Source: an uncultured Candidatus Saccharibacteria bacterium
GTDB taxonomy: Bacteria > Patescibacteriota > Saccharimonadia > Saccharimonadales > UBA4665
DNA length: 64,000 nucleotides
NCBI GenBank assembly: GCA_937892705.1
Contig: CALBGR010000021.1
Coordinates: 6,572 to 70,571, forward strand
Direction: 5' to 3'
This document shows positions 4,361 through 32,134 of this stretch, piece after piece. The translations under genes and the position numbers were made by a program. Position 1 is the first letter of the stretch; each line of letters begins with the position of its first letter. The notes under the pieces were generated by a model. The model was not told where the DNA came from. It saw only the letters and a program-made list of their open reading frames with translations, and searched no databases.

Positions 4361-4369
4361 AATTAAGAG

Positions 4370-4396
4370 CCCTACACGAAGAAAGGTAGGGTTTTT
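4370..4396 (+). terminator. rho-independent terminator after tRNA-Lys
   Basis: Stem CCCTAC/GTAGGG followed by TTTTT. Confidence 0.7.
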
Positions 4397-4431
4397 AATT
4401 TGCCTCTTGTCATTTTTGTTATAGTTAGTTT

Positions 4432-4821: not shown

Positions 4822-4926
4822 AAGCATAACAAGACGCCGCGGAAGTTGATATTTTATTAATTTTATGTTACAATAATAAGATAGATATCTGTTATTCTAA
4901 ATCGCCTTATCTCTTATGGTATAAAA

Positions 4927-17773: not shown

Positions 17774-19651
17774 ATGAAAAAGCTTGTACGGTTTGTACGT
17801 GCATATAAATTATTTAGTTTTGCGCTTATTGCGAGCATAGTAGCACTTGGTTTAGATCTAGGCGGCCTTGATACAATCACACATTGGATACTTGGCATTT
17901 TGAGTGTTGCGGTGTTGCTGCCGCTTCTGTACGGCATGATTCAAGACATTCGTGACGGCACCTACGGCGTAGATATTTTAGCCGCAACCGCTATCGGTAC
18001 TGCAGTTATCATGCATGAATATTGGACAGCTGCGGTTATTATCTTGATGCTTACAGGCGGTGAAGCATTGGAACAGTATGCTGACCATCGAGCAAAAACA
18101 GAACTTGAAGCACTACTACATCAAGCGCCACAAAAAGCACATGTCATTCGTGGTCGTAAAGAAATTGACGTAAAAGCAAGCCAAGTTGTTAAAGGAGATA
18201 AATTAATTATCCGTCCTGGTGAACTTGTACCAGTTGATGCAGTTGTTTTGGAGGGTGTCGGCAGCTTTGACGAATCAAGCTTGACTGGCGAAAGCATGCC
18301 ACAAACTAAAAATCCAGGTGATGAGATTTTTAGCGGTACTGTAAATGTTGATGGTGCAATAACCGTTCGTGCACTTCGTCCCGCAGCTGAAAGTCAATAC
18401 GAACAGATTATTAAATTAGTAAAAAACGCCACCGCAAGTCGCGCACCATTTGTGCGTATGGCCGATAGATATGCAGTACCATTTACTATCGCTGCATATG
18501 TAATTGGTATTGGCGCATGGATGATTAGCGGTGACTCACTCCGCTTCCTGCAAGTACTGGTAGTAGCCACACCTTGCCCATTGATTTTAGCGGCACCAAT
18601 TGCAATTATTTCCGGCATGAGTCGAGCCGCAAAGCACGGTATTATTATCAAAAATGGCGGCGCTTTGGAGCGCCTAGCACAAGCTAAGACTTTTGCTTTT
18701 GACAAGACTGGAACATTGACTCGCGGTGAACTGTCAGTTGATAAAGTAAAGACGTTCAATAAACACCGAATCAAAGATGTCATTAGCCTTGCAGCTGCTT
18801 TAGAACATAATTCCAACCATGTGGTTGCTCAAGCTATTGTTCGTTATGCCAAAGACAAGAAAATCTCATATACAAAAGCAAAACGTGTAAAAGAATTTGC
18901 AGGCCTTGGACTCAAGGCGCATGTTGGTGGTCAAGACGTCTTAGTTGGCCGCGAACAACTCATGAAAGATCAAGATGTAACCTTTCCTAAAAGTTTTAAG
19001 TTCAATACCGGCAAGCAATCTGCAACATATGTAGCCGTCGATGGAAGCTTGGTTGGTATCATTAGCTTTACCGATGAAATTCGCGCAGAAAGCGCTCTTA
19101 CTATCAAGCGTCTAAAGCAAGCTGGTGTTAAACATCTCATGATGATAACCGGTGACAATAAGCAGACAGCTCGTGCAGTTGCTAAATCACTTGGTATTAA
19201 AAATGTTGTTGCTGAAGCGCTGCCAGCAGACAAGTTACATACACTCACCAGCCTGCCAAAAGACAAACATCCAACAGCTTTCATTGGCGATGGTATTAAT
19301 GATGCCCCGGTACTAACTGCGAGTGATGTTGGTATTGCACTTGGTGCACGAGGTGCTGCTGCAGCAGCTGAATCTGCAGATGTCGTAATTATGCTTGATG
19401 ACGTCGAGCGTGTTGCTGTAAGTCGTGAAATTGCAAACCGAACGTTCTTTATCGCAAAGCAAAGTATCTTGGTAGGTATTGGGCTAAGTGTAGTGCTTAT
19501 GGGTATTTTTGCAACCGGCATGTTTAAGCCAATTTATGGTGCACTCGCACAAGAAGTCATAGACATCATAGTAATTGTGAATGCATTACGTGCACATGGT
19601 AGTTTCAAAAACCAACACAAACTACCACCAAGCAACAAACAGCTGAGCTAG
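17774..19651 (+). CDS. heavy-metal-translocating P1B-type ATPase without N-terminal metal-binding domain
   Basis: DKTGTLT, TGDN, GDGINDAP. The TM6 motif is TPCP rather than CPC. Start set at ATG 17774 after AAGGAG. Confidence 0.9.
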   Translation: MKKLVRFVRAYKLFSFALIASIVALGLDLGGLDTITHWILGILSVAVLLPLLYGMIQDIRDGTYGVDILAATAIGTAVIMHEYWTAAVIILMLTGGEALEQYADHRAKTELEALLHQAPQKAHVIRGRKEIDVKASQVVKGDKLIIRPGELVPVDAVVLEGVGSFDESSLTGESMPQTKNPGDEIFSGTVNVDGAITVRALRPAAESQYEQIIKLVKNATASRAPFVRMADRYAVPFTIAAYVIGIGAWMISGDSLRFLQVLVVATPCPLILAAPIAIISGMSRAAKHGIIIKNGGALERLAQAKTFAFDKTGTLTRGELSVDKVKTFNKHRIKDVISLAAALEHNSNHVVAQAIVRYAKDKKISYTKAKRVKEFAGLGLKAHVGGQDVLVGREQLMKDQDVTFPKSFKFNTGKQSATYVAVDGSLVGIISFTDEIRAESALTIKRLKQAGVKHLMMITGDNKQTARAVAKSLGIKNVVAEALPADKLHTLTSLPKDKHPTAFIGDGINDAPVLTASDVGIALGARGAAAAAESADVVIMLDDVERVAVSREIANRTFFIAKQSILVGIGLSVVLMGIFATGMFKPIYGALAQEVIDIIVIVNALRAHGSFKNQHKLPPSNKQLS

Positions 19652-22053
19652 CCTCTGCTTAGCGCCTGTTCTATATCAGCACGAGTTATCCGCACTTCAC
19701 TACCAGGCTGCACCTGCTGGCTCAATACTTGGTTCGCCACAATATTTTCAACAGTGCGCTGAACGATGCGTCTCATCGGACGCGCACCCAAACGTGGATC
19801 ATACCCGACCTGTACCAAGAGTTGTTTTGCGTCATCATCCACTACCACACTGAGTTTTTGAGCAGCTAATGTTTTGTTAATGCCCTTTAAAATCAAATCA
19901 ATCACCTGCAGCAGTTCTGCTGGCTCCAACGGACGGAATAATACGATATCATCAAAACGGTTTAAGAATTCAGGACGAAACGTATTGCTGTTTATGAGCT
20001 CGTCGGTAAATTGCTGTTCAAAATCTTCAAGTTTTTCACCTGCTTCAATGTGTTGACGAATGCGATCTGCGCCAGCATTACTTGTCGCAATAATCACCGC
20101 ATCTCGAAACGATACTTCGCGGTTGTTAATGTCACGCAAAATACCTTCGTCTAAAACTTGCAACAGCGTATTCAGCACTTCTGGATGCGCCTTTTCAATT
20201 TCATCAAGCAAAACTACACTAAATGGCTGGCGAGCAATTTGCGCCGTTAAACTATGAGAATCTTGTGCGGGATCAGCAATGAGCCGTGCAACATCTTCAG
20301 ACCGAACATACTCATTCAAATCTAAGCGCACTAAATTATTCTCATCACCAAAAAATACCGCCGCAACACTTTTTGCCAGCTCTGTCTTACCCACACCTGT
20401 AGGACCTAAGAACAAGAACGTGCCAATCGGCCGATTTGTATTGCGCACCCCTGCTCGTGCACGACGCAGTGCATCACTTACTACCTGAACAGCGCGCGTT
20501 TGATTAATCATTCTTTCATGAATCAGCGCCTCAAGATTTAGTAACGTATTGCGCTCGGCTACAGTATCTGCTGCGCCAACCTTAACTCCCTGCGTTTGTT
20601 CAATTGCTTGTTCTATTGATCGGCGCGTAACAAGCGGCCCTTCACTAAAATTAGCCGCAGATTCCAAAAGCTTCAATGCCTTACCAGGCATGACTTGCTC
20701 TGTGATAAAACGCGAACTCAGCCTATAAGCTGCCTCGAGCGCTTGATAGGTATAGACAACCTTTTGCTGATGTTCAAAAAGTATAACCTGGTTTTGCATA
20801 ATATCCATAGTTTCAGCTTCATCTGTTGGTGGCACCACGATTCGATTCATACTCTGTACAAGCGCAGGATTATTTTGAGCAACTCGGGTCCAGCACTGTT
20901 CATCCATAGCCAGCACAATTCTTAATGCCCCGCCATCAAGGATTGGCATAAGTACATTGCTTAAATCAACCGAACCAGTGCCTTCTTCGAAAAACAAATG
21001 CGCATCATCAAAGAAAAGGATAATATTTTTTGCCCTAAGCGCCTCATAGCAAATTCGCTGCACTAACTCTTCCAGCTCACCTCGCCCTCTTGCATTTGCC
21101 ATAAGCGTAGAGGGATCCAAAGCGATAACCTGATGATAGTGTAATGATTTCGGTACCGCCGGATCGGCTTCAAGTAGCTGCTCAGCGAGCGCATATACAA
21201 GCTTGGTCTTTCCGCTGCCCAGTTGTCCAACCAGTGTTACATTGCGCCGACCAGCCTGCGCCAGTGTATTCGTAATGTGACTTACTAATTGAAGGCGGCT
21301 CGTACGCTCTCGCGCCAATGACCCGCCGTAAGCTACATGCTCACTAATGTTAAATCCCAGACGCTCCAAAAGCGGTATATACCCAAACGCCCAATCGCGA
21401 CCAATACCACCCTTTGGGCGACGCTGCTTATAAGCAGCGATCAAATCTTCTTCGTGCTTAAACCATGCAAGACCCTTTTCAATATCTTGTCGACCGACCC
21501 CTAAGTGAGCTAAGTAATCATCAATGCCTCTAATAGTCACTACTAAAGCAGTAACAAGCACAGCGGCATTGATTGTTTCAAAGCCATGAGCTCGTCTATA
21601 ATACTCAGCCTGCTGCCATATTATCGGCATTGCTTGCGTATCGGTACTTGCCATATCGTAAATAAAATCTTGACTAAGCAAGAACCGATTGCATATGAAA
21701 TTACAATCGGGAGTATTTTTTATAATGCCCATAAGCTCTTGGGGCGACGGATCACGCGACAAGCGAGCCAACACTACAGAATTCAATAACGCATCTATAG
21801 TATTAGTCTTACCCGGCGGTAAATGAGTAAGCGACTTACCCCACAAAGCCAAAGCCCAAATCGGACCAGCTAAACTCATTACCAGCCATCCAATACTGCT
21901 TTGCAACACAATAAGCAGCAACAGTCCTAAAACAACAAACAGCACTATAAATAAAGTAAACACAAAGTATACAGTCCGACCTCCTAGTACACGACCTAGT
22001 CGGGCCTGTTTAGCACGCCTGCTGCTGTAATTAAAAGTCATCTGATCATTCAT
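19648..22053 (-). CDS. membrane-anchored two-NBD Clp/Hsp100-like AAA+ ATPase
   Basis: N-terminal hydrophobic helices. NBD1 has GQLGSGKTK and Walker B IILFFDDAH (DD instead of DE). NBD2 has GPTGVGKTE and VVLLDEIEKAH. C-terminal ClpB_D2-small-like GARPMRR. The start ATG 22053 overlaps the upstream stop (ATGA). Confidence 0.85.
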   Translation of the reverse strand: MNDQMTFNYSSRRAKQARLGRVLGGRTVYFVFTLFIVLFVVLGLLLLIVLQSSIGWLVMSLAGPIWALALWGKSLTHLPPGKTNTIDALLNSVVLARLSRDPSPQELMGIIKNTPDCNFICNRFLLSQDFIYDMASTDTQAMPIIWQQAEYYRRAHGFETINAAVLVTALVVTIRGIDDYLAHLGVGRQDIEKGLAWFKHEEDLIAAYKQRRPKGGIGRDWAFGYIPLLERLGFNISEHVAYGGSLARERTSRLQLVSHITNTLAQAGRRNVTLVGQLGSGKTKLVYALAEQLLEADPAVPKSLHYHQVIALDPSTLMANARGRGELEELVQRICYEALRAKNIILFFDDAHLFFEEGTGSVDLSNVLMPILDGGALRIVLAMDEQCWTRVAQNNPALVQSMNRIVVPPTDEAETMDIMQNQVILFEHQQKVVYTYQALEAAYRLSSRFITEQVMPGKALKLLESAANFSEGPLVTRRSIEQAIEQTQGVKVGAADTVAERNTLLNLEALIHERMINQTRAVQVVSDALRRARAGVRNTNRPIGTFLFLGPTGVGKTELAKSVAAVFFGDENNLVRLDLNEYVRSEDVARLIADPAQDSHSLTAQIARQPFSVVLLDEIEKAHPEVLNTLLQVLDEGILRDINNREVSFRDAVIIATSNAGADRIRQHIEAGEKLEDFEQQFTDELINSNTFRPEFLNRFDDIVLFRPLEPAELLQVIDLILKGINKTLAAQKLSVVVDDDAKQLLVQVGYDPRLGARPMRRIVQRTVENIVANQVLSQQVQPGSEVRITRADIEQALSRG

Positions 22054-22424
22054 GCTAAAATCACCATCAATATTACTCCTACAATAGGCAATACGGGAAT
22101 AACGAGCCAAAAAACTGCCCATATGGTACCGATAGTGAGCACCAAAACCGCACCAACACACCCGCAAACTATCGTCATACTTCGCAAAACAGCACCAAAA
22201 ACCCGTGAAAATGTACGATCAAGCCGCGCCCGAATCTGAACGTTTAATGGCCCACGCACGCTACCTGCATCAATTTGGCGAAATGGTGCAAATAACGTTC
22301 GTGCCAACAAGCCTACCGAAAACGTTTCCAGTACTCGCAGCGTACGAAGCTGTACCTTATGCAAAACATCAAACCACGCCGTGGTATACCACCAAATCAG
22401 CATATCAACAACTATCATAAGCAC
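22050..22424 (-). CDS. small integral membrane protein, translationally coupled to the Clp-like ATPase
   Basis: 124 aa, hydrophobic N- and C-termini. ATGA stop/start overlap with the downstream gene. Confidence 0.55.
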   Translation of the reverse strand: MLMIVVDMLIWWYTTAWFDVLHKVQLRTLRVLETFSVGLLARTLFAPFRQIDAGSVRGPLNVQIRARLDRTFSRVFGAVLRSMTIVCGCVGAVLVLTIGTIWAVFWLVIPVLPIVGVILMVILA

Positions 22425-22452
22425 TATTATACATTTTTATATCTTCAGAATC

Positions 22453-23085
22453 TTACCCAAGTCTGTAAAGCACAATTGCTACCCACACTGGAACCGTAAT
22501 GTTATCAAGCCCTCGTACACTGAAGTTTTCGAGAAATGTCGCAATAAAGCTCGCACCAAGTATGATAGCCGCATGTATAGATGTATCTGTACCAATACTG
22601 TAACCCCAAAGAATTGCAACAGAAATGACAAAAAACGTTAGACTACCAACCACGCTTTTTACGTGTCCTAGTACTTTATATGAAGTCTTCTTACCATAGC
22701 GACTGCCTATCACCGCCGCCATACCGTCCGCCAGACTCATATGAAGCAGTGCTGCCATATACATCCAGCCATTCTGCGTAAGGACTGCGAGCAGTCCAAC
22801 GCTTATTGCAAAAAACACTTCTCCCATGGTAGGACGTTGTACGCTATGAATCGCCTGAAAAACATTTAAATATTTTGATATGCCTACCACTGCAACAAAT
22901 GCCGCACTCAGCAAAAGTATTTGATTCCAGCTAAGCAACAGCGGCCAAAACGCCACAAAACTACCTACTGTAATATGCACAAATTTGCGGCAAATTTCCG
23001 GCGGCAGTTTTTGACTACGGGACAAAAACTCTCCTACAATCAACAAACCAAACACTACAGCTACTACCAACCCAAACATCAACAT
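22453..23085 (-). CDS. polyprenol/dolichol-kinase-like membrane protein (CTP-dependent kinase / cytidylyltransferase superfamily)
   Basis: 210 aa, multi-TM, with RKFVHITVG and LADGMAAVIGSRYGK motifs. Confidence 0.6.
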   Translation of the reverse strand: MLMFGLVVAVVFGLLIVGEFLSRSQKLPPEICRKFVHITVGSFVAFWPLLLSWNQILLLSAAFVAVVGISKYLNVFQAIHSVQRPTMGEVFFAISVGLLAVLTQNGWMYMAALLHMSLADGMAAVIGSRYGKKTSYKVLGHVKSVVGSLTFFVISVAILWGYSIGTDTSIHAAIILGASFIATFLENFSVRGLDNITVPVWVAIVLYRLG

Positions 23086-23250
23086 ACCTGTATCCTGTCG
23101 TCTCTATAAATTGCTGCTTTCGTGTTTCCAATAGACCCCAAAGAATGGTGTATATACGTATTAATAAGACGTGCTATTTTCTGTAAAAAATTAATTATTT
23201 TTAAATCTATATGTTTCATAACAACTAGTCTCTATTGTAACGCCTTGTTA

Positions 23251-23288
23251 TAAAAAAAGAGAAGAGACCCGGGGGTAAGGGTCTCTTT
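23251..23288 (-). terminator. rho-independent terminator (minus strand)
   Basis: Stem AGAGACCC/GGGTCTCT. The minus strand continues TCTTTTTTTA. Confidence 0.75.
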
Positions 23289-23358
23289 GATGGGTTGCTT
23301 GTCGGGGTTGTTTTAAATTTTGGATGGGCTTTTTAGTGAAATAACGAGGGGTTATTCC

Positions 23359-23391
23359 TTATGATAAAAAGCCACATTTATCACTTGCCAT
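23359..23391 (-). CDS. 10-codon sORF (MASDKCGFLS) with strong SD; status uncertain
   Basis: GAGGAGG lies 7 nt upstream of the ATG. A TACAAT -10-like box is at 23427-23432. Two hairpins follow, the second an intrinsic terminator. Confidence 0.3.
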   Translation of the reverse strand: MASDKCGFLS

Positions 23392-23528
23392 ATACACACC
23401 TCCTCTCGTTACCAATTAGTGGTTACATTGTAGTAAGCATGTGGTGAAGGGACTGTGGAAAATCTTACAAACCTACTGAAACACGAAGTCGACAAGAGTG
23501 CTTCGTATGATCTATACAGCTCTTGTTA

Positions 23529-23542
23529 TTGATCTGAATCAC
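23529..23542 (+). promoter_or_regulatory. FNR/CRP-type inverted repeat TTGAT-N4-ATCAC upstream of the Crp/Fnr-family gene
   Basis: TTGATCTGAATCAC, 9/10 match to the TTGAT-N4-ATCAA consensus, about 75 nt upstream of ATG 23615. Confidence 0.5.
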
Positions 23543-23614
23543 AGAAATTGATGATATTTAATTTCGATTTAAGATTTGGTCCGTATGCTTATAGTTAGGA
23601 GGGGATGTGCACAA

Positions 23615-24313
23615 ATGAAAACTTCATCACTCGCCGCACTATTTCAAAACGGACGCAAACTTACCTACGAAAAAGACGAAATTATCATACGCGCTGAAGA
23701 CATACCTTCAGGCGTATATTACATTAATTCAGGCTGGGTAAAAGCATACACGCTAAGCAAAGATAAAGAACCAGCTATTGTCATGACGCTGTTTCCTGGT
23801 GATATTTTTCCATGTGCATGGGCACTCACCGGCATAGATCACGACCTACACTTCGCCGCATTAGACGAAACAGAAGTATCCCGTATCTCAACCAAACAAT
23901 TTAACACAGCCGTTAAAAATAATGCTCGTTTGTCTCGCGAATTGCTGCAAGTATTTGCAAATAACTTCTTCGCACTCACTAACGAGCTCACCAATATCCA
24001 ATACCACACTGCGAAAGAAAAAGTTATCTATCGCTTACTTTTCCTGGCTAAAAACTTCGGCAAAAAGGAGAACAATAAAATTGTTATACACAAACATATT
24101 CCGAATGAATACATTGCCCGCTCCACCAATATGACCAGAGAAACAACGAGCCGGGAAATGAGTCGTCTTACTCGAAAACGACTTATTAGACACACCGACG
24201 AGCAGATAATCATACCTGACATCAATGGACTTATTAAAGAAATTGAATACGATTCCAAAGGAGTAACTTCCCGGCCGCCTTTTACAAAGGTGCTCAGTGA
24301 TGCATTACAATAA
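23615..24313 (+). CDS. Crp/Fnr-family transcriptional regulator
   Basis: cNMP-binding-like beta-roll (GVYYINSGWVKAY) and a C-terminal HTH (ARSTNMTRETTSREMSRL). Start chosen after TAGGAGGGG. Confidence 0.85.
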   Translation: MKTSSLAALFQNGRKLTYEKDEIIIRAEDIPSGVYYINSGWVKAYTLSKDKEPAIVMTLFPGDIFPCAWALTGIDHDLHFAALDETEVSRISTKQFNTAVKNNARLSRELLQVFANNFFALTNELTNIQYHTAKEKVIYRLLFLAKNFGKKENNKIVIHKHIPNEYIARSTNMTRETTSREMSRLTRKRLIRHTDEQIIIPDINGLIKEIEYDSKGVTSRPPFTKVLSDALQ

Positions 24314-24334
24314 AGATAAAAGAAAGAGAATCTT

Positions 24335-25006
24335 ATGAAAGCACTATTAGTCGAAGACAACATCATGCTCGCACAGAGCATTAAAGACAACCTGCAACCG
24401 ACCTGGAACATTGAGATAGCAACGTCTGGTGAAGAAGGCGTAGAGTTGGCAAAAAACAAGACGTACGATGCAATCATTTTGGACCTAGGCCTACCTGGCA
24501 TGGATGGCCAAGATGTTTGTTTGGCGCTCCGCAAAACCAACATACATACTCCTATTCTCGTATTAAGCGGTGCTTCAGAAACCAACACAAAAGTTTCTCT
24601 CCTAAATAACGGGGCCGATGATTACCTGACAAAACCATTTAAGACCCTAGAACTCCAAGCGCGGCTCAACGCACTCGCCAGGCGCGGGGCACAAATAACA
24701 CAACCAAGTCCTATTCTTAAGGTTGACAATCTTATACTTGATCCTGAAAAGCGCATAGTAAAGCGAGGCAACAAGAAAATAGAATTGCGACGTAAAGAGT
24801 TTGACATCTTAGAGTATCTTATGCGGAATCAAGGCAAAGTAGTTAGTCGACCAATGATTATTAGTCATGTTTGGGACGCTCGACATGAGACCTGGAATAG
24901 TACAGTAGATGTTCACATAAAATACTTGCGTGATAAAGTCGACAAGCCGTTTAAGCGTAAACTTATTAAAACTGCACACGGGGTGGGCTATACTATTAGT
25001 AAATAG
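24335..25006 (+). CDS. OmpR/PhoB-family response regulator
   Basis: Receiver (LLVEDN ... ILDLGLPGMDG ... LTKPF) plus a winged-helix trans_reg_C domain (LRRKEFDILEYL ... IKTAHGVGYTI). Confidence 0.92.
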   Translation: MKALLVEDNIMLAQSIKDNLQPTWNIEIATSGEEGVELAKNKTYDAIILDLGLPGMDGQDVCLALRKTNIHTPILVLSGASETNTKVSLLNNGADDYLTKPFKTLELQARLNALARRGAQITQPSPILKVDNLILDPEKRIVKRGNKKIELRRKEFDILEYLMRNQGKVVSRPMIISHVWDARHETWNSTVDVHIKYLRDKVDKPFKRKLIKTAHGVGYTISK

Positions 25007-25035
25007 CCAGCGAAATTAAAAAGAAAGGAGCAATT

Positions 25036-25143
25036 ATGAACGAGCTCATTGCGCAAATCTTATCTGACAGCAGCATTCGCAGCAATGCCGTGCTAGAAGG
25101 TATTGCCATGCAGCAAGCTATAGCACAACCGTGGTGGAGCTAG
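25036..25143 (+). CDS. unannotated 35-aa peptide MNELIAQILSDSSIRSNAVLEGIAMQQAIAQPWWS (candidate signalling-peptide precursor)
   Basis: ATG 5 nt after AAAGGAG, sitting in the 180-nt gap between the regulator and kinase genes. Below the ORF-track length cutoff. Confidence 0.5.
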   Translation: MNELIAQILSDSSIRSNAVLEGIAMQQAIAQPWWS

Positions 25144-25149
25144 CATTTC

Positions 25150-25176
25150 GACCTAGGTACTATAGGTACCTAGGTC
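25150..25176 (+). promoter_or_regulatory. perfect 11-bp inverted repeat / hairpin between peptide ORF and kinase gene
   Basis: GACCTAGGTAC-TATAG-GTACCTAGGTC followed by TTTATAAGTT. Could be a partial terminator or an operator. Confidence 0.5.
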
Positions 25177-25186
25177 TTTATAAGTT

Positions 25187-26560
25187 ATGTTAAAAAAATT
25201 TTATTCCACATTTATTAAGCCTGTTTCGACTGACCCTGACCAAAGAAGTAGAGAGGTCGTACTAAATTGGCTCATTGCCGGCATGGGCTGTCTTTTTGCT
25301 ATTTTCTTTTTAACAAGTATTTTTGGATTTATTTTATACGGCAGAGCATACACCCTGTATTCACTATTCATAATAATCATTTTGCTCACAGCCACAGTGT
25401 TGTACGGATATAAATTTCGCAAAGATGAACGCATTCGTAAAATTGCAAGCAACTTAGTACTCCTGCTTTTGCTAGTTTCCGCCACGACTATTGTTTTACA
25501 ATGGGGCGTTACAAATATTTATGGAATTTTATTCTTTAGCCTAACAATCATTACAGCTGGTATACTGTTGGGTTCTAAATACGCTTTATACGTTGCCGGC
25601 GTTATTGCACTCCTGCTTGCAGCATTTAAATATGCCCATATTAACAATATCATTCAGCCGGATATGTCATGGGTGACAGAATCTACATCAATAGTGGAAG
25701 TAGTAAATCTCATCACTATATTTTTTATCATCGCACTTATTTCGTGGCTTTTTAACAAACAAATGGAACAGGCCCTAAAGCGCGCCCAGTTGTCAGAAGA
25801 AGCACTCAAAAAAGAACGGGACCTTCTTGAAGTAAAAGTTGAAGAACGTACTCGTGCTCTTCAAGAAGCTCAATTTGAAAAAATGCAGCAAATATATAAA
25901 TTCGCTGAACTAGGACACCTTAGCACAGCATTGTTTCATGATCTTGCCGGAAGTTTATCAAGTTTAAGTCTTGATATAGAATCGCTCCGCAAAAAAGGCA
26001 GCGGCGACTTAACAAAACGCATAGATAGCAACATCCAGTATATTGACGATGTTGTACAAAGAGTAAAGTCCCAAATCCAAGGCCGCGAAACCATAGAAAC
26101 ATTTGACATAGTTAGCACCCTGCAAGAAATTAAAAACATTTTATCTTACAATGCGCGAAAAGCACGTGTATATATTGAAATTGATGCCCCAAAAAATAAA
26201 TCTATCACCTATACAGGTAATTTACTGCGATTCCGCCAACTGATAATTAATCTAATTTCCAATGCTATCGAGGCATATCCGCCAGCAAAACCAAATGAAC
26301 CTACAAAAAATCGCCCTGTTATTATAAAACTTACTACCACTGCAGATAGTGTACTTATTCAAGTAACCGATTATGGATCGGGTATCCGAAAATCGGTACA
26401 AGAAAAAATATTTGACCCATTCTACAGCACAAAGCCCACTGGCTCGGGCATTGGACTGTTTATTGTCAAACAAATAACTGAAAAGGATTTCGGGGGCACT
26501 ATACGTCTAACCAGTAATGCAAAAACTGGTACAACCTTCAGCATATCCCTGCCAAAATAA
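25187..26560 (+). CDS. sensor histidine kinase with about 6 N-terminal transmembrane helices
   Basis: H-box LSTALFHDLAG, N-box LISNAIEA, G1 DYGSGI, G2 GSGIGL. A coiled-coil linker follows the membrane domain. Confidence 0.9.
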   Translation: MLKKFYSTFIKPVSTDPDQRSREVVLNWLIAGMGCLFAIFFLTSIFGFILYGRAYTLYSLFIIIILLTATVLYGYKFRKDERIRKIASNLVLLLLLVSATTIVLQWGVTNIYGILFFSLTIITAGILLGSKYALYVAGVIALLLAAFKYAHINNIIQPDMSWVTESTSIVEVVNLITIFFIIALISWLFNKQMEQALKRAQLSEEALKKERDLLEVKVEERTRALQEAQFEKMQQIYKFAELGHLSTALFHDLAGSLSSLSLDIESLRKKGSGDLTKRIDSNIQYIDDVVQRVKSQIQGRETIETFDIVSTLQEIKNILSYNARKARVYIEIDAPKNKSITYTGNLLRFRQLIINLISNAIEAYPPAKPNEPTKNRPVIIKLTTTADSVLIQVTDYGSGIRKSVQEKIFDPFYSTKPTGSGIGLFIVKQITEKDFGGTIRLTSNAKTGTTFSISLPK

Positions 26561-26562
26561 AC

Positions 26563-28497
26563 ATGAAAAAACGCATTTCCCGTGCCATACAAGAAGGGCT
26601 CGCCTATATCGCTACCGAACAAGAATCTGACGGTAGCTTTAAAAGTTATTTAAGTCTTGACCCTGATATACCAAACAAAGAAAACGCTGTTCGAACTGTT
26701 TTTATCCCTGCCATAATGCTCGCTGCTTTAGCAACATGCAAAACCTCAGAGTCGTTAAACATTCGGCAAAAACTTGCAGATTTTTTACTTTCACAGAAAA
26801 GCCCGCAATGGACATTTAATTTCTGGGCACACGATGAACCGCTGAAAAAGACAAGAAATTATCCAGATGACCTAGACGACACTTTTTGTGTCTACATTGC
26901 ACTTTATGCCCACAACCCAAGTCTCGTCACCCCTGAAGTACTTGCACATATGACGAAAGTTCTTGTATCTACCGAGAAAACACCGGGCGGCCCTTATAGA
27001 ACATGGCTTGTCCCTGCTAACAGCGAAGCAATATGGACAGATGTTGATATTGCAGTAAACAGCAACATTGCATACTTTCTTACAAAAGTATCCCGACCGC
27101 CAGCCGGACTCCATGCATACCTTGAACAATCTATCATATCTGGGCAAATTTCTTCCCCGTATTATCCGCCTAACTACCCTATCCTGTACTACTTGGCTCG
27201 TGCTTATACAGGCAATGCTAGTGATCGATTATTACAACTGATACGAAGGCACCATAAAACACATAGACTCTCGCTTATGGAGCGTGCACTTATGTGTACT
27301 GCTGTGATGACTATAACAAAAAGAGCCCAAGAAATTCATAAAGATATCCAGATTATTTTAAAAGCTCAAAAACCAGACGGATCGTGGCCTGCCAGGAGCT
27401 TCTGCACAGATCAGTATACTGAAGCAGGCGTATATCAAAATGGTTGCGCTGCACTCACCACTGCCCTCGTGCTAGAAGCACTCGCAACTTACCAGAATCT
27501 CATCCATGCACCAAGAACCCCGAAAAATCATGTATCTACAACCAAAGACACACTTACAAATAATGTATCTGCATTTGTGCAAAAATCGTGCAGTAAACTT
27601 AATCAGCCGCTCAAAGACTCCACATTGCTTGCAACCTCACATATACTAACCAGTACTAATGCTCAAGAGGTTACGCATTTTGCCAGCAACTTTAATAGCA
27701 GTCTCAAAAACCCGCTGCGTAATCAGTCTACACTGTTAGTCAAACTTGGCGCCGCGAATGTATTTGGCTGGACCGCCTACACGATTTACGATGACTTTCT
27801 AGACAATGAGGGTAAAGCTCAGCTTTTACCTGCCGCAAATACATCCCTTAGGCTGGCATACGAATTATTCCTTGATGCTTTGCCTAATCAAACCTTCAAA
27901 AACTTTGTACGCGAATCATTTAACAAAATAGACAATGCAAACACATGGGAATTAACACATTGCCGCTTTGACACGTACAACAAGCGAACCGTTACTATCG
28001 AAAAGGTGCCCGATTACGGAAACCTAGAACCACTTGCACATCGATCTGTCGGACATGCTATTAGCCCTTTGGCTGTCTTAGTAAAATCCGGTACCCCACC
28101 AGAATCTGCAGATTTTCAAGCTATATTCACCGCTATACAACACTATATTATTGCCAGACAATTAAATGACGACCTGCACGATTGGCAAAAAGATTTTCTT
28201 CACGGTCATATATCATACATTGTTGCCACACTCCTAAAGGAGTTTGCCCTAACACCAGGCACCTATAGATTTCATGAATTATTACCTTCTATGCAAAAAC
28301 ATTTTTGGTATTACACATTAAAAACTATATACAACGACATATTGCAGCACATTGAACTAAGCCGAAAAGCCTTGCAAAAAAGTTCCGTTTTGAAACGAGA
28401 TAACGTGATAGAAAACTTGCTTTATAAAATAGAAGAATCCGCTTATGAAACACTAGACAAACAGTCACAAACTATAGAGTTCTTAAAACATTTTTAA
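26563..28497 (+). CDS. fusion protein: N-terminal squalene-hopene-cyclase/prenyltransferase-like alpha/alpha toroid (DxDD) plus C-terminal trans-isoprenyl-diphosphate-synthase-like domain (two DDxxD motifs)
   Basis: QW-like repeats QESDGSF and QKPDGSW. DDLDDT at aa 102-107 (nt 26866-26883). DDFLD at aa 410-414 (nt 27790-27804). QLNDDLHD at aa 533-540 (NDDLHD at nt 28165-28182). The start is 2 nt after the kinase stop. Confidence 0.65.
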   Translation: MKKRISRAIQEGLAYIATEQESDGSFKSYLSLDPDIPNKENAVRTVFIPAIMLAALATCKTSESLNIRQKLADFLLSQKSPQWTFNFWAHDEPLKKTRNYPDDLDDTFCVYIALYAHNPSLVTPEVLAHMTKVLVSTEKTPGGPYRTWLVPANSEAIWTDVDIAVNSNIAYFLTKVSRPPAGLHAYLEQSIISGQISSPYYPPNYPILYYLARAYTGNASDRLLQLIRRHHKTHRLSLMERALMCTAVMTITKRAQEIHKDIQIILKAQKPDGSWPARSFCTDQYTEAGVYQNGCAALTTALVLEALATYQNLIHAPRTPKNHVSTTKDTLTNNVSAFVQKSCSKLNQPLKDSTLLATSHILTSTNAQEVTHFASNFNSSLKNPLRNQSTLLVKLGAANVFGWTAYTIYDDFLDNEGKAQLLPAANTSLRLAYELFLDALPNQTFKNFVRESFNKIDNANTWELTHCRFDTYNKRTVTIEKVPDYGNLEPLAHRSVGHAISPLAVLVKSGTPPESADFQAIFTAIQHYIIARQLNDDLHDWQKDFLHGHISYIVATLLKEFALTPGTYRFHELLPSMQKHFWYYTLKTIYNDILQHIELSRKALQKSSVLKRDNVIENLLYKIEESAYETLDKQSQTIEFLKHF

Positions 28498-28593
28498 TTT
28501 GTGCCATTTTCTAGTCTTAAGCGCGGGTGAAAATTATTACAGAACCGCACCGAAAGCATTTCTATACTACTTACTATAATTGAGGGCAAGCCA

Positions 28594-28992
28594 ATGGCAG
28601 ATACCTATCAACCCCAACATACAGGATGGAAAGGTTGGATATTGCTTACAGCTCTTTTAATGTTCTTTAGCGGCATTGTGCATATTGTATACGGAATTGG
28701 CGGCATATTTACTCATGGCTGGTATATTTATACTTCAAACAACGCATATATCTTCGATGCGAGCACTTGGGGTTGGTCAATGTTCATAGTAGGAATACTG
28801 CTTATGTTGTCCGCATTGTCTCTCGCAGCAGGTAATTTATTCGGACGTATCGTAGGAGTTATATTGGCCATAGCCAGCATTGTATTCAATATCGCACTTA
28901 TCGGCGCCACACCAATTTGGTCAGTGATTGCCATTATCCTTAGTATTATTATCATTTATGCAATTACTGCCCACGGCAGCGAAATGAAATAA
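28594..28992 (+). CDS. small 4-TM membrane protein (DUF7144-like)
   Basis: 132 aa, four hydrophobic helices, GWKGWILLTALLMFFSG ... PIWSVIAIILSIIIIYAI. Confidence 0.65.
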   Translation: MADTYQPQHTGWKGWILLTALLMFFSGIVHIVYGIGGIFTHGWYIYTSNNAYIFDASTWGWSMFIVGILLMLSALSLAAGNLFGRIVGVILAIASIVFNIALIGATPIWSVIAIILSIIIIYAITAHGSEMK

Positions 28993-29290
28993 TATCGGCG
29001 CTATCACTCCAAACCATAAACAACGGAATGTTAAACCGCCACAAACTTTACCAAACACCCTCTTTCTGGGAAAAACAGACGCATTAAATCCTGTAAATGT
29101 GGCAAAGTTGCCATACTCTGAAGAAATCGTAAGACGTTTACGTAATAACCTCAAAGAACAAACGGGTATCTACTTTCAGATCGATGATGTTACAGAGTAA
29201 CTAAAAATATCATTGTAAAAAAGTAGAGTTTCCAAAGCCTCACCTTCGACAAAAAACCTAAAAGAAAAAAGACGCCTGTAGTAGATAGTG

Positions 29291-29513
29291 TTTCTGGGAA
29301 AGAGGTCCCCATGGGGTAACAAAAACCTTCTCCTGCTTGAGAAGACTTAAAGTACTTTAACTGGCCGGAGTGAAAAGCAGCGCCCCACGGGCTTTTCCGT
29401 TCAGCCTTGCTCGAGGTAAGCTTCTGTGCGCGACTTCACCTCACCGAACCTTCATCATCTACAATGTTTTTCTGACAGAAAATAGTCGAAGAACCGAACT
29501 CTTAACCCAGAAA
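29291..29513 (+). ncRNA. candidate structured RNA of unknown class (strand tentative)
   Basis: Closing helix TTTCTGGG-a-AAGAG (29291-29304) pairs with CTCTT-aa-CCCAGAAA (29499-29513). At least five internal hairpins, for example CTTCTC/GAGAAG, GAAAAGC/GCTTTTC, GAGGT/ACCTC. An intrinsic terminator follows immediately on the plus strand. Confidence 0.35.
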
Positions 29514-29523
29514 AAGAAAAAAC

Positions 29524-29548
29524 GACCGTCGAAAGACGATCATTTTTT
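29524..29548. terminator. bidirectional intrinsic terminator
   Basis: GACCGTC-GAAA-GACGATC flanked by an A-run (5') and T6 (3'). Confidence 0.7.
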
Positions 29549-29550
29549 CT

Positions 29551-29558
29551 TGGTCGGG
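29551..29558. repeat. 8-nt copy of the tRNA-Pro 3' end (TGGTCGGG), candidate distal att core
   Basis: Identical to 35630-35637. On the minus strand it reads CCCGACCA followed directly by a terminator, as expected for an orphaned tRNA 3' end. Confidence 0.45.
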
Positions 29559-29703
29559 ATAAGCACAATACACTAGAACTCAAAAATTACCTCTTGCAGA
29601 ACTATGACAACTTCAATTTTGCCGTCGAACAAATACGAACAATTAAGAATATAGATGATGGCAAGCTACTCGTAGTCAAGTTATAATTGACTGAAAGGAG
29701 TTT

Positions 29704-29935
29704 TATGACAAACCTATCTGATGCAGCAGAAATTTTAAGACAATCTAAAAAGAATAAAGAGATCCAGGATAATAAGCCTATAAACTTCACGTCTACAGCT
29801 AAGACTAACGGTGTATCGGTGCATACGCTAAAAGCTGCTAGTGGTATTTCTGTACGTATGATGGATGACGATCCAAAGAAAATTAACATAGCCGAAATGT
29901 CCTCGAACCCTCAGCCAGAAAATAACCAGAAATAA
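29704..29935 (+). CDS. hypothetical small protein (island)
   Basis: ATG 29704 lies 4 nt after AAAGGAG. 77 aa, hydrophilic. Preferred over the antisense ORF 29602-29889. Confidence 0.5.
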
Positions 29936-29977
29936 TCCACCGCTACTGCACAACTTCTAAAAATACAGATGGTAACC

Positions 29978-30823
29978 CTACCGTTCGCTCATGATTCTAT
30001 TAATGATTTGGAATATTTTATCAAGGAATAGTACTTGCTTGAGTGATAATTGCTCTGATACGTAGCTGGAGTTCTCACCATGCAGAATTCTGTGCCGACT
30101 GGCTTGATTACTTAATTTAAACAGTTGGAGATTTTCTCTTTTCTGGATGCCCCTCAAGCTGTCGTTGGCAAAAAGTATATTTTTGAAGGAATAATAAATC
30201 GGATAGATATCAAAGTAATCATCTGCTGGTACATTATTATAGTCATCTAGGCCAAAGTGTCGGGCAAAGTTTACTTGCTGCTCACTTATAATTGTGTCGA
30301 GATTTTTAGACTTCATATTATCAATTGCCTGTTCTTTTGAAGCAGGAAACAGACTTTTAGCATAGTGGTCGATCTGTGCCATTGCTACAGGAATGCTCAA
30401 GCTGTATTTTCTTTCTATGTGTGCGTCCAGTAAGTCAACCAGTATCCTCCTTCTAGATTTAGGTATAAACCCATACTCAGCCCATCTTTCGCGCATTTCA
30501 TGAAGTTTCTGACTGCCATTTTTTCTCGACTGTCTAACAACTAGCTTGGTAAATGCCTTGTTGTACTCTTCGCTGCCTAAGGCTGCCTCAGTCTCATTGG
30601 CTGGCAAGTCATCAATAATAGAACCTGGATACCACCAGCCAGTTTTAATATTTATCTCATATTCGTCTACTCGTCTGTTAATTTGCCTGAAAAAATCCGT
30701 ATCAAACAGTTTTGACATATCCTTATTGATAGTTGATATAACATCTGTGATTGACTTTTGATAATCTCCCTGTATTGCTCTAATCGCACGCTGGATCGAA
30801 TCATATATACTGTCATTATTCAT
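29978..30823 (-). CDS. hypothetical protein with C-terminal Rx4H motif (HEPN/Abi_C-like candidate)
   Basis: 281 aa. NQASRHRILHGE near the C-terminus fits the HEPN Rx4-6H motif and the RNxxxHG-type Abi_C signature. Sits downstream of the XRE gene on the same strand. Confidence 0.4.
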   Translation of the reverse strand: MNNDSIYDSIQRAIRAIQGDYQKSITDVISTINKDMSKLFDTDFFRQINRRVDEYEINIKTGWWYPGSIIDDLPANETEAALGSEEYNKAFTKLVVRQSRKNGSQKLHEMRERWAEYGFIPKSRRRILVDLLDAHIERKYSLSIPVAMAQIDHYAKSLFPASKEQAIDNMKSKNLDTIISEQQVNFARHFGLDDYNNVPADDYFDIYPIYYSFKNILFANDSLRGIQKRENLQLFKLSNQASRHRILHGENSSYVSEQLSLKQVLFLDKIFQIINRIMSER

Positions 30824-30875
30824 AAATACATCTTACAGTTATCGACTACAAAACCTCAAAACCCTCACAAGTAAG

Positions 30876-31091
30876 TTAGAAGTCAGTTAAATCAGAAACT
30901 CTTACCTTTAGAGCTTTAGCAATCTTTTCAATACTTCTTAGCGATGGATTTTGTACACCACGCTCCACTCTGGAGATGTACCCACGATCAAGACCTGTCT
31001 CATGACCTAGCTTCTCTTGCGTAATACCTGCTTGTTGCCGATAGCACTTAACTCTTTGACCTAATTTTTGTAATACGCTTGTTCTTGCCAT
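30876..31091 (-). CDS. XRE-family HTH transcriptional regulator
   Basis: 71 aa, ITQEKLGHETGLDRGYISRVERGVQNPSLRSIEKIA. Confidence 0.88.
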   Translation of the reverse strand: MARTSVLQKLGQRVKCYRQQAGITQEKLGHETGLDRGYISRVERGVQNPSLRSIEKIAKALKVRVSDLTDF

Positions 31092-31216: not shown

Positions 31217-32134
31217 ATGAAGGCTAAACTATCTGAAAATAAAAAATGGTACACGAAGAATCAGATAGTCATAGCCTTACTTGTCCTACTGTTCCCAGTG
31301 GGATTGTTTCTTATGTGGAAGCACTCCGATTGGACAAAGCGTACAAAAATTATAGTCAGCGTTATAGTTGCTATAGCCGCAATTTCAGGAGTCATTGCTT
31401 CATACAACTCGCCGCCATCAATAAGCGTTAATAATGCTCAATCGGACAGAATAAATACAGACGATAAGGAATATACTCTAACTGGAGAAGTATCCAGTCT
31501 GAGAGACGCAACACTAACGATTAATGAAGAATCTGTATCTCTGGACGGTATCAAGTTTTCGTATCATACGGAGCTAGAAGAAGGAGATAACACCTTTACA
31601 TTAGTTGCGACTAACAGCATCGGTGAGACTACAAAAGTCATAACAATCTATCGAACGACACAAGCCGAACTAGATGCACGAGCAGAAGCTGAGAGACTAG
31701 AGGCAGAAAAGAAGGCTGAGGAAAAGCGACGAAAGCAGGAGGAGGAAAAGAAAAAAGAGCAAGATAGCCAGTCTAATAACGACCAGCCTTCCGAAGCAGA
31801 TCAAAAACCATCGGTAGATCTAGCTAAGCAGACCGAAGAAAGCCTCAAGAAAGCATTAGAAATTTCTAGCTTCACTGAACTGCTTTTCCAGGACCCATCG
31901 TCTCTCATGGGATACATCGCTAGCTTTGAAAATGTAAACGACAGCACAGTACGTGTAGTTATCCAGACCGATATAGAGCGTAATGAGGCTCAACAGGTTG
32001 GTCGGGTTATATTTTCTACCGCTGCCTATGATAACGAGAACTTGAAGGCTCTTGATACGCTTGTCGTACGAGATATTTCTGGCATAGATAAAGCCAATAT
32101 CTACAGATGGGACATACCGGCTCTGAAGCGCTAG
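31217..32134 (+). CDS. membrane-anchored protein with Ig-like segment and charged coiled-coil linker (island)
   Basis: Two N-terminal TM helices, an EAERLEAEKKAEEKRRKQEEEKKKEQ low-complexity linker, and a globular C-terminus. Confidence 0.6.
   Translation: MKAKLSENKKWYTKNQIVIALLVLLFPVGLFLMWKHSDWTKRTKIIVSVIVAIAAISGVIASYNSPPSISVNNAQSDRINTDDKEYTLTGEVSSLRDATLTINEESVSLDGIKFSYHTELEEGDNTFTLVATNSIGETTKVITIYRTTQAELDARAEAERLEAEKKAEEKRRKQEEEKKKEQDSQSNNDQPSEADQKPSVDLAKQTEESLKKALEISSFTELLFQDPSSLMGYIASFENVNDSTVRVVIQTDIERNEAQQVGRVIFSTAAYDNENLKALDTLVVRDISGIDKANIYRWDIPALKR

Follow-up and report, generated by a model that had tools for sequence, protein, structure and literature searches.

A conserved Patescibacteria gene cassette predicted to make and sense a ribosomal peptide bearing a cyclised isoprenoid

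The cassette described here, from a 64-kb window (the whole stretch of DNA analysed) of an uncultured Saccharibacteria genome, probably makes and senses a ribosomal peptide that carries a cyclised isoprenoid on a single conserved tryptophan, combining a ChrPC-like maturase with a two-component logic like that of ComQXPA. The data establish which genes make up the cassette, that they occur together almost universally, what two folds the large enzyme has, that its catalytic residues are conserved, that the peptide is truly encoded and that a prenyl-diphosphate synthase recurs in the operon, and it is from these that we infer a biochemical function and role. If the proposal is correct, the cassette is a candidate cell-to-cell signalling system in the ultra-small Patescibacteria, for which none was described in the literature searched.

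All five open reading frames (ORFs) of the operon lie where an earlier, sequence-only reading had placed them, and Pfam domains agree with its calls for the Crp/Fnr regulator, the response regulator (RR) and the histidine kinase (HK). The features of the locus are as follows:

23615..24313, + strand: Crp/Fnr-family regulator (cNMP_binding E 3.6e-14, HTH_Crp_2 E 8e-11)
24335..25006, + strand: OmpR-family RR (Response_reg E 7e-24, Trans_reg_C E 3e-25)
25024..25030, + strand: Shine-Dalgarno AAAGGAG of the small ORF, read in the sequence 5 nt before the ATG
25036..25143, + strand: precursor peptide gene, 35 aa, MNELIAQILSDSSIRSNAVLEGIAMQQAIAQPWWS (jackhmmer family, Shine-Dalgarno, codon pattern)
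25150..25176, + strand: perfect palindrome GACCTAGGTAC-TATAG-GTACCTAGGTC, then TTTAT (sequence; RNAfold -21.6 kcal/mol, z = -5.9)
25187..26560, + strand: polytopic sensor HK (HATPase_c E 3e-23; about six TM helices with short loops, then the kinase core)
26563-28497, + strand: 644-aa enzyme gene, starting 2 nt past the kinase stop
26563..27510, + strand: N-terminal domain of the enzyme, class II cyclase (AF2 model, Foldseek, profile match)
27538..28497, + strand: trans-IPPS-fold prenyltransferase-like domain, aa 326-644 (fold model, motifs)

The conserved core comprises the RR, the small ORF, the polytopic HK and the 644-aa enzyme, and is shared by essentially all of 80 related loci, which span several Patescibacteria classes (Saccharibacteria, Microgenomates and Parcubacteria). 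A specific full-length kinase homologue (E 1e-63 to 1e-186) adjoins the enzyme gene in 76/80 loci and a specific RR homologue is found in 69/80, with a median offset of about -2.9 kb relative to the enzyme gene, so that homologues of the enzyme almost always keep the two-component and small-ORF company first seen in the window. Loci missing parts of the cassette are accounted for by truncated contigs, and L068, the one apparent exception to synteny, has these same genes, arranged divergently. Chance falls far short of explaining a layout that recurs in essentially all the related loci examined. The Crp/Fnr gene is the first gene of the operon in the window organism; only 12/80 loci have a homologue of it within 6 kb, directly upstream of the RR in seven of the 12, and the gene is therefore an accessory, lineage-specific part outside the conserved core.

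Judged by its pattern of conservation, the small ORF is a real gene. Its shortness and the lack of a match in Pfam or NCBIfam might suggest a non-coding leader sequence or a fortuitous ORF within the RR-HK spacer, but this has become a vanishingly improbable explanation, already effectively refuted. A jackhmmer search of the 8,806 small ORFs of the 80 loci gave 70 matches, all on the operon strand and immediately upstream of the kinase gene, with no match elsewhere among those ORFs. Across these 70 loci, in different classes, the frame, a length of 34-41 aa, the head motif and the near-C-terminal Trp are all kept, an SD-like motif precedes 56/70 of the ORFs, and substitutions in 60 close pairs follow a coding pattern, with 505, 372 and 1150 at codon positions 1, 2 and 3. 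Furthermore, public gene callers list the exact 35-aa product as a gene on 40 contigs, so the description of the ORF as unannotated does not apply everywhere. The precursor plan is an N-terminal (I/L)L(T/S)DxxxR head, a variable middle, PW and then one to seven residues; besides Met1, the only invariant side chains are the head Leu and Arg and the near-C-terminal Trp, which is the sole Trp in 68/71 peptides and is directly preceded by Pro in 56/71. The window peptide has Trp codons at 25132-25137, and of the two residues to which they correspond, at -3 and -2, only one Trp is invariant, and the second Trp of the WW pair noted in the sequence-only reading is not conserved. Between the precursor stop and the kinase gene sits the palindromic hairpin. 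Hairpins occupy the same position across loci, their place conserved but not their sequence (median z = -2.42, 37/70 below -2), as against a control region past the RR stop (median z = -0.2, 8/64 below -2), and the element is probably an attenuator or transcript stabiliser.

The HK has about six TM-like segments within aa 24-185, and its sensor half diverges faster than its kinase half (31% versus 39% identity). Of all parts of the cassette the RR evolves most slowly, with 49% mean pairwise identity, compared with 26% for the peptide tail, 31% for the HK sensor and 36% for the prenyltransferase domain. Peptide divergence correlates most strongly with that of the prenyltransferase domain (r = 0.46) and does not follow the RR; between peptide and HK sensor the partial Mantel r is 0.19, a weak signal in a kind of test that shared ancestry inflates. 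The overall pattern resembles that of ComQXP pherotypes, and adjacency together with this weak co-variation would link the peptide product to the kinase.

The N-terminal half of the enzyme had been called a cyclase from its motifs, and the call now extends beyond them. Its AF2 model (pLDDT 94.5) retrieves the drimenol synthase AsDMS (Foldseek E 4.6e-10), small SHC-like cyclases and, also among the best structural matches, MstE (E 4e-8), which cyclises prenylated aromatics, while a profile of the domain aligns with the class II domain of AsDMS at E 3.5e-18 (profile positions 25-308). The DxDD proton-donor motif PDDLDDT (aa 101-107, nt 26863-26883) aligns with PDDLDTT of AsDMS (PDDLNTT in the D333N mutant entry), and D105 is therefore the counterpart of the catalytic acid D333. 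Among 59 homologues, D103, L104, D105 and D106 of DDLDDT (aa 102-107) are invariant and T107 is kept in at least 90%; the QW-like repeats proposed earlier are likewise conserved (Q20, G24; Q269, G273, W275). The AsDMS cyclase domain and MstE both have the single alpha/alpha-barrel fold with the DxDD acid at the same position as here. In AsDMS the fusion partner is a HAD phosphatase and the substrate is free FPP; in the present enzyme the partner is a prenyltransferase. MstE works as a separate enzyme on a small meroterpenoid, whereas the presumed substrate here is a peptide, but MstE cyclises a prenyl chain already on an aromatic ring, which is the type of reaction proposed.

The C-terminal domain (model pLDDT 93.8) carries a first Asp-rich, FARM-like motif, YDDFLD, at nt 27787-27804 (DDFLD, aa 410-414) and a Gln followed by a second Asp-rich, SARM-like motif, QLNDDLHDWQKD, at nt 28159-28194 (QLNDDLHD, aa 533-540). 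These two motifs and that of the cyclase domain stand at the positions previously reported for them, and their key Asp and Gln residues prove invariant in the 59 homologues: D410 and D414 in the first (D411 in at least 90%), and Q533, D536, D537 and D540 in the second, along with W541 and D544. FARM lies on helix alpha4 and SARM on alpha8, as in IPPS and StheQ, and HexPPS, GGPPS, DPPS, FPPS and the indole prenyltransferase Ord1 make up most of the best 50 Foldseek matches (best TM 0.60-0.67), bearing out the suspected similarity to isoprenyl synthases. The PF00348 profile matched 0/59 members, and sequence searches found no PDB sequences and, by hhalign, no match to the in-operon IPPS. Since no sequence homology to ComQ is detectable either, assignment to the trans-IPPS fold is a prediction resting on the modelled fold plus motifs. 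The invariant Gln, three residues before SARM, is the counterpart of Q212 in StheQ, and PMC13290415 describes such a Gln as a hallmark of Trp recognition in ComQ, PalQ, ChrPC and Ord1. Ord1 (Foldseek E 6e-4, TM ~0.6) and PalQ share with this domain the all-alpha IPPS fold, FARM and the Gln just upstream of SARM; unlike the present enzyme they have no cyclase domain or associated two-component system, and Ord1 acts on free tryptophan while PalQ needs a terminal Trp.

Prenyl donor supply is suggested by a PF00348 synthase (E ~1e-53), closest to GGPP and FPP synthases, in 23 of the 80 loci, where it usually overlaps the enzyme stop codon, starting within 4 nt of it in 16/23, and lies between the RR and the small ORF in 3/23; none was found within the 64-kb window. 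The invariant IPPS residues of these true synthases (G47, K48, R51, R98, R99, K192, T193) have no counterparts in the C-terminal domain, which lacks any invariant Lys among the 59 homologues, and their absence argues against chain elongation by this domain. Co-encoding of a dedicated GGPP/FPP synthase also suits a quite unlikely alternative, in which the 644-aa protein would work on its own as a bifunctional terpene synthase, one domain ionising or building the chain and the other cyclising it, to give a polycyclic lipid that stands in for a hopanoid or sterol in the membrane; the two-component system would regulate it, with the small ORF as a kinase accessory and not a substrate. Where StheQ has a pseudo-SARM, the second motif here (DDxxDxxxD) is complete, and its spacing also fits class I terpene-synthase metal motifs, yet the best 50 structural matches of the domain are mostly IPPS-type enzymes and Ord1, not terpene cyclases, and the upstream Gln is a Trp-prenyltransferase signature according to PMC13290415. 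In favour of this alternative, fusions of class II cyclase and alpha-fold domains exist in diterpene synthases, and abietadiene synthase is among the full-length Foldseek matches, though with a poor TM of 0.25; AsDMS, to which the cyclase domain is closest in sequence, also uses free FPP. A kinase accessory, however, would hardly explain the invariant head Leu and Arg and near-C-terminal Trp, or a peptide divergence that follows the prenyltransferase domain and not the RR.

On the preferred reading, a lipopeptide made and sensed by the cassette, the 35-aa precursor would be transcribed with the operon, and the hairpin past its stop may favour the peptide transcript over downstream genes. The C-terminal domain would bind a C15-C20 allylic diphosphate via FARM and Mg2+ and alkylate the conserved Trp on its indole, in the manner of ComQ, StheQ, PalQ and the ChrPC P domain, with the LTDxxxR head probably serving as recognition element. 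D105 of DxDD would then protonate the distal double bond of the attached chain and the N-terminal domain close it into a polycyclic terpenoid, paralleling MstE on prenylated aromatics and the NctPC and ChrPC C domains on prenyl-Trp peptides. According to PMC13290415, characterised trans-IDS-like peptide prenyltransferases all target Trp, and in prenyltransferase-cyclase ('PC') fusions prenylation of Trp is followed by cyclisation of the attached chain. The lipopeptide may exit the cell or insert into the membrane; in the weakest step of the model, the membrane-embedded sensor of the adjacent kinase would detect it and signal via the OmpR-type regulator, hence the logic of Bacillus ComQXPA.

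With the enzymology unchanged, the modified peptide could instead be primarily an effector (an antimicrobial, host-directed or membrane-active lipopeptide), with the two-component system controlling production or immunity; this is considered rather unlikely. NisRK provides a two-component precedent in the regulation of nisin and immunity to it, and a host-directed lipopeptide is plausible for Patescibacteria, which are episymbionts. However, specialised-metabolite clusters are usually patchy, whereas this cassette is kept by vertical descent throughout entire classes and has a short core, one copy of the precursor and, always, its kinase and regulator. Neighbour clustering of the 80 loci found polyprenyl synthase as the sole other family in more than 12 loci and no conserved exporter, leader protease, RiPP recognition domain or immunity gene, although an ABC transporter lies near the cassette in 9 loci. 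Nisin is itself both effector and signal, so one role does not preclude the other. In favour of an effector, the literature treats known PC-type products as natural products of the RiPP class and not as signals.

The cassette has the same parts list and logic as ComQXPA and StheQ/StheX (Sphaerobacter), namely an IPPS-fold enzyme, a short peptide with a near-C-terminal Trp, a polytopic kinase and a regulator, adjacent on one strand. StheX, farnesylated on its Trp at -2, shares its WW-x ending with the window peptide, and here as in ComQXPA divergence is fast in the enzyme, peptide and sensor but the regulator is conserved. The likeness to ComQXPA claimed in the sequence-only reading thus stands as logic but not as homology: no defining Pfam family of ComQ, ComX, ComP or ComA is matched here (PF00348 for ComQ, PF05952 for ComX, PF07730/HisKA_3 for ComP), the regulator has a Trans_reg_C (OmpR-type) and not a GerE-type DNA-binding domain as in ComA, the gene order is A-X-P-Q and not the Q-X-P-A of Bacillus, the peptide has 35 aa against 52-73 in ComQXPA and StheX, and the class II cyclase domain is extra. 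The fusion enzyme, meanwhile, had been called novel, but its architecture is known from the PC maturases of RiPPs, including ChrPC with its trans-IDS-like P domain (Hubrich et al. 2024, via PMC13290415). As described there, ChrPC also joins trans-IDS-like prenyltransferase and MstE-like class II cyclase domains in one polypeptide and is encoded next to a ribosomal precursor in which a Trp lies internally; the chemistry reported for its type, C10-C20 prenylation of Trp followed by chain cyclisation, is here predicted from folds, motifs and the GGPP/FPP-type synthase. In the present enzyme the cyclase is N-terminal and the prenyltransferase C-terminal. By the same description, the present cassette differs in having a two-component system in fixed synteny, a 34-41-aa precursor with its own LTDxxxR head and a spread across Patescibacteria; for a PC-type fusion, both the two-component coupling and this spread appear unreported in the literature searched.

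Every element that the sequence-only reading had placed in this operon was found at its position, and Pfam confirmed the identities of the Crp/Fnr regulator, the response regulator and the histidine kinase.

Genes and elements of the operon (window coordinates, strand, description)
23615-24313, + strand: Crp/Fnr regulator, identified by Pfam
24335-25006, + strand: OmpR-type response regulator, identified by Pfam, with a Trans_reg_C DNA-binding domain
25036-25143, + strand: 35-codon ORF, with AAAGGAG 5 nt 5' of its ATG
25150-25176, + strand: perfect 11-bp palindromic hairpin 3' of the small ORF stop (z = -5.9)
25187-26560, + strand: histidine kinase with HATPase_c and about six TM-like segments within its first 190 residues
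26563-28497, + strand: 644-aa ORF, starting 2 nt past the kinase stop

A Crp/Fnr homologue is found in 12 of the 80 related loci that were compared, i.e. it is lineage-specific. A promoter consensus scan of the region was uninformative (15 sites against 17.9 expected), no direct repeats that might serve as response regulator boxes were found 5' of the operon, no Rfam family was detected across window 22000-30000 and no prenyl-diphosphate synthase was found within the 64-kb window. Directly 3' of the enzyme gene lies a DUF7144 four-TM membrane protein (28594-28992, +), which probably falls outside the cassette because, among the 80 loci, it is conserved at that place only in L002, the closest relative having one.

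Several other features of the surrounding DNA were recorded. A ClpB/ClpC-like double AAA+ ATPase (19648-22167, -; AAA_2, ClpB_D2-small and AAA_lid_9) has an unusual N-terminus of ~200 aa with hydrophobic segments and no recognisable Clp_N domain. At 29978-31091 (-) a 71-aa HTH_3 (XRE-type) regulator is encoded directly 5' of a same-strand 281-aa ORF without a Pfam match, a pair that resembles a small regulator-effector or toxin-antitoxin-like module; L081, an otherwise near-identical contig, has different genes there, which marks the site as a variable spot. A possible surface protein of 305 aa is encoded at 31217-32134 (+); it has a TM anchor at its N-terminus, a weak match to a Glucodextran_B-like (Ig-like) domain and a low-complexity stretch rich in Lys and Glu. 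GC skew across 1-64000 is negative in nearly all 2-kb bins and falls steadily to a cumulative -3.6, indicating that the whole window lies on one replichore with a C-rich + strand.

The enzyme belongs to a family with at least 792 matched clusters at 90% identity, and an exhaustive profile search of 50%-identity clusters returned 1,397 representatives with E no higher than 1e-30, a number that rises to 3,511 when the cut-off is relaxed to 1e-3. The best 150 of these representatives are ~600-680 aa long, with two shorter exceptions that are probably truncated entries. In one-genome-per-species data the enzyme occurs in at least 220 genomes, almost all of them labelled as Saccharibacteria, Microgenomates, Parcubacteria or other Patescibacteria. 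The related loci L020, L031, L042, L043, L045, L049, L051, L059, L061, L067, L069, L074 and L080 include cassettes in MAGs labelled as Gammaproteobacteria, Bacillota, Methylomirabilota, Dormiibacterota or Vitreimonas, which are GTDB species representatives with long contigs; these are probably mislabelled or contaminated bins and not a sign of wider spread.

The neighbourhood of the enzyme gene is strongly conserved. A kinase homologue (E 1e-63 to 1e-186) adjoins it in 76 of the 80 loci and the regulator lies 5' in 69, the loci without one or the other being those in which the contig ends too early. Adjacent genes on one strand, in the order A-X-P-Q (regulator, peptide, kinase, enzyme), are seen in the window and ~70 loci. 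An apparent exception without small ORF and kinase, L068, was ruled out, since both genes are present there in divergent form and partly masked: positions 3700-6600 hold a polyprenyl synthase, a peptide beginning MSEVLKKALTDKSAR and a kinase divergent from the enzyme gene, with a receiver-only response regulator convergent and downstream, and runs of N break the peptide and kinase. Unbiased neighbour clustering of the 80 loci recovered one further recurrent family besides the enzyme, kinase and regulator, a polyprenyl synthase (PF00348, E ~1e-53) present in 23 loci; its start is 4 nt or less from the enzyme stop codon in 16 of these, and in three the synthase gene separates the regulator from the small ORF. 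The solved structures nearest to this in-operon synthase are GGPP and FPP synthases (E 5e-69 to 2e-63), a kinship that points to a C15-C20 donor. The same clustering found no conserved exporter, protease or RRE-type partner near the cassette.

Wherever a locus has sequence between its regulator and kinase genes, that stretch contains a small ORF of 34-41 aa. An iterated profile grown from the window peptide matched 70 of 8,806 small ORFs taken from both strands of the 80 loci, each of the 70 being located directly 5' of the kinase gene and on the operon strand. Differences between 60 close pairs at codon positions 1, 2 and 3 number 505, 372 and 1150 at the nucleotide level, a Shine-Dalgarno-like motif precedes 56 of the 70, and a hairpin 3' of the stop recurs across loci (median z -2.42, vs -0.2 for the post-regulator spacer). 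The peptides share the head M-x-x-hydrophobic-hydrophobic-x-x-(I/L)-L-(T/S)-D-x-x-x-R, followed by a variable stretch and then usually A-x-P-W plus 1-7 residues. The Trp is invariant, lies 1-7 residues from the C-terminus in all 71 peptides, is the sole Trp in 68 and is preceded by Pro in 56. The sequence-only reading had drawn attention to two adjacent Trp residues in the window peptide; the second is not conserved, and a single Trp is common to the peptides.

The Asp-rich motifs named in that reading held up in an alignment of 59 homologues of the 644-aa enzyme, where D103, D105 and D106 of PDDLDDT, D410 and D414 of YDDFLD, and Q533, D536, D537, D540 and D544 of QLNDDxHDWxxD are invariant, and T107 and D411 are kept in at least 90%. 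An AlphaFold2 model built from the family alignment (pLDDT 94.5, pTM 0.84) has two domains with a short disordered linker between them, around residues 317-326. Pfam and NCBIfam gave weak alpha/alpha-toroid matches at aa 240-350 only, and phmmer against PDB sequences found nothing.

Foldseek neighbours of the N-terminal domain are the drimenol synthase AsDMS (E 4.6e-10), small SHC-like proteins and MstE, which cyclises prenylated aromatics (E 4e-8). Its profile aligns nearly full-length with the AsDMS cyclase domain (E 3.5e-18), pairing PDDLDDT with the AsDMS sequence PDDLDTT. That sequence appears as PDDLNTT in the D333N mutant deposited for AsDMS, which identifies D105 as the counterpart of the catalytic acid D333. 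The domain combines an alpha/alpha-barrel fold with a DxDD acid placed at the catalytic position, as in class II terpene cyclases of the AsDMS/MstE monodomain type.

The C-terminal domain is not assigned by Pfam or NCBIfam, a profile hmmsearch against PDB sequences detected no relative, and hhalign against the in-operon synthase family gave E 0.19 with the region of the first Asp-rich motif (FARM) alone aligning; given the failure of all sequence-level searches, the domain is assigned by fold and motif alone. Modelled separately (pLDDT 93.8), its top 50 Foldseek matches are mostly trans-isoprenyl diphosphate synthases (IPPS) together with the IPPS-fold indole prenyltransferase Ord1 (best TM 0.60-0.67), and helices alpha4 and alpha8 carry its two Asp-rich motifs, just as they carry FARM and the second motif, SARM, in IPPS and the ComQ homologue StheQ. 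For a chain-elongating IPPS the criteria applied were a PF00348 match together with GKxxR, RRG after the FARM, a KT motif and C-terminal Lys residues. No PF00348 match was obtained for the window protein with an E cut-off of 1, or for any of the 59 family members with a cut-off of 0.01, and the residues invariant in true IPPS (G47, K48, R51, R98, R99, K192, T193, K248 and K258) have no counterparts in the C-terminal domain, which has no invariant Lys either; the IPP-binding residues being missing, this reading was rejected. A class I terpene cyclase, expected to have a class I alpha fold closest to terpene cyclases and DDxxD plus an NSE/DTE motif, was also considered; DDxxD is present, as is a DDxxDxxxD motif with NSE/DTE-like spacing, but this reading is not favoured, the structural neighbours being IPPS-type enzymes and Ord1. 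The top 50 include a single terpene-synthase entry, one chain of the bifunctional variediene synthase. The invariant Q533, three residues before the SARM and equivalent to Q212 of StheQ, suggests a Trp prenyltransferase, since a Gln before the SARM is a Trp-recognition feature common to ComQ, PalQ, the P domain of ChrPC and Ord1 (PMC13290415, a 2026 review).

The most economical reading of the combined results is a RiPP-type pathway, in which a C15-C20 diphosphate would serve the C-terminal domain to prenylate the conserved Trp, and the N-terminal class II domain would then protonate the distal olefin via D105 and cyclise the chain. On chemical grounds prenylation before cyclisation is sensible with a farnesyl donor: were FPP fully bicyclised at the outset, its diphosphate would no longer be allylic and a prenyltransferase could not ionise it. 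The same order is reported for NctPC and ChrPC (PMC13290415). The product, or a membrane-inserted form of it, would be the kinase ligand, as in ComQXPA, a role suggested by the constant presence of a polytopic kinase and a regulator alongside the other genes. Mean pairwise identity rises from the peptide tail (26%) through the kinase sensor (31%), prenyltransferase domain (36%), kinase core (39%) and cyclase domain (42%) to the regulator (49%), a ranking that suggestively parallels the pherotype pattern of comQXP vs comA. Peptide divergence tracks that of the prenyltransferase domain best (partial Mantel r = 0.46) and shows no relation to that of the regulator after control for the kinase core (r = 0.015). 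Peptide-sensor co-variation is positive in partial Mantel tests. These statistics are all taken as suggestive only, because shared phylogeny inflates such tests. Taken as a whole, the mechanism of Trp prenylation, cyclisation and sensing is considered reasonably probable, its enzymology being the firmer part and the signalling role of the product the less secure.

Patescibacteria account for much of the diversity of bacteria and have minimal genomes and a host-attached lifestyle, and to our knowledge how they sense one another or their hosts is largely unknown. The cassette is kept across several Patescibacteria classes, and its retention, costly for a ~1-Mb genome, implies an important function. 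That the Patescibacteria (CPR) hold an ancient, vertically inherited pheromone system, made of a short ribosomal peptide, a polycyclic (sterol- or drimane-like) terpenoid on its Trp and a dedicated membrane kinase, is a more tentative proposition, judged to fall somewhat short of an even chance; if it is true, the system would be a candidate for the first cell-cell (or symbiont-host-surface) communication system in these ultra-small episymbionts. Should the mechanism hold, it would offer a concrete, testable signal and receptor pair for Patescibacteria, extend Trp-prenyl peptide pheromones well past the Bacillota, mean that cyclised-terpenoid RiPPs, known only since 2024, can act as signals, and provide a large, diverse set of compact prenyltransferase-cyclases with very short substrates for peptide lipidation biocatalysis.

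The likeness to ComQXPA that the sequence-only reading had put forward extends to the parts list and stops short of homology. Judged by the locus criteria of PMC4008528, both systems consist of four adjacent same-strand genes, but the order in the window is A-X-P-Q. ComQ is a single-domain isoprenyl transferase of PF00348 (PMC4008528), whereas the window enzyme has two domains, 644 aa and no PF00348 match. ComX is a 52-73-aa precursor of PF05952 with Trp within 5-10 residues of the C-terminus (PMC4008528); the window peptide family has its Trp in a similar position, but is shorter and lacks PF05952. ComP is a polytopic kinase with HisKA_3 (PF07730) and HATPase_c (PMC4008528), and the window kinase shares HATPase_c and the ~6 TM segments, although PF07730 was not matched at E up to 1. 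Finally, ComA is a response regulator with a LuxR/GerE DNA-binding domain (PMC4008528), in place of which the window regulator has the OmpR-type Trans_reg_C. The cassette is an analogue of ComQXPA, not a homologue.

The closer parallel is with the prenyltransferase-cyclase (PC) RiPP maturases of the ChrPC type, reported in 2024 by Hubrich et al. and described in PMC13290415 as a trans-IDS-like P domain plus an MstE-like class II cyclase domain. Set against that description, the modelled window enzyme likewise unites a trans-IPPS-fold domain and an AsDMS/MstE-like class II domain in one polypeptide; it has both the FARM and the Gln directly before the SARM that mark the active site (PMC13290415), and an adjacent gene encodes a precursor-like peptide whose invariant Trp is the predicted attachment site. 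A fusion of this type, originally thought novel, therefore has precedent. No paper tying Patescibacteria or Saccharibacteria to ComX-like or terpene-RiPP systems emerged from full-text searches, although the 2024 mining by Hubrich et al. may already list the family, and no description of a cyclised-isoprenoid RiPP with a two-component receptor was met in the literature searched. The interpretation as a signalling operon is supported with three corrections: its relation to ComQXPA is one of analogy, its fusion enzyme has precedent and its peptide has one conserved Trp. Among known systems, the evidence supports placing it with the cyclised-isoprenoid RiPP maturases, here conserved through a major, poorly understood bacterial radiation in fixed linkage with a two-component system and with very short precursors of a separate family.
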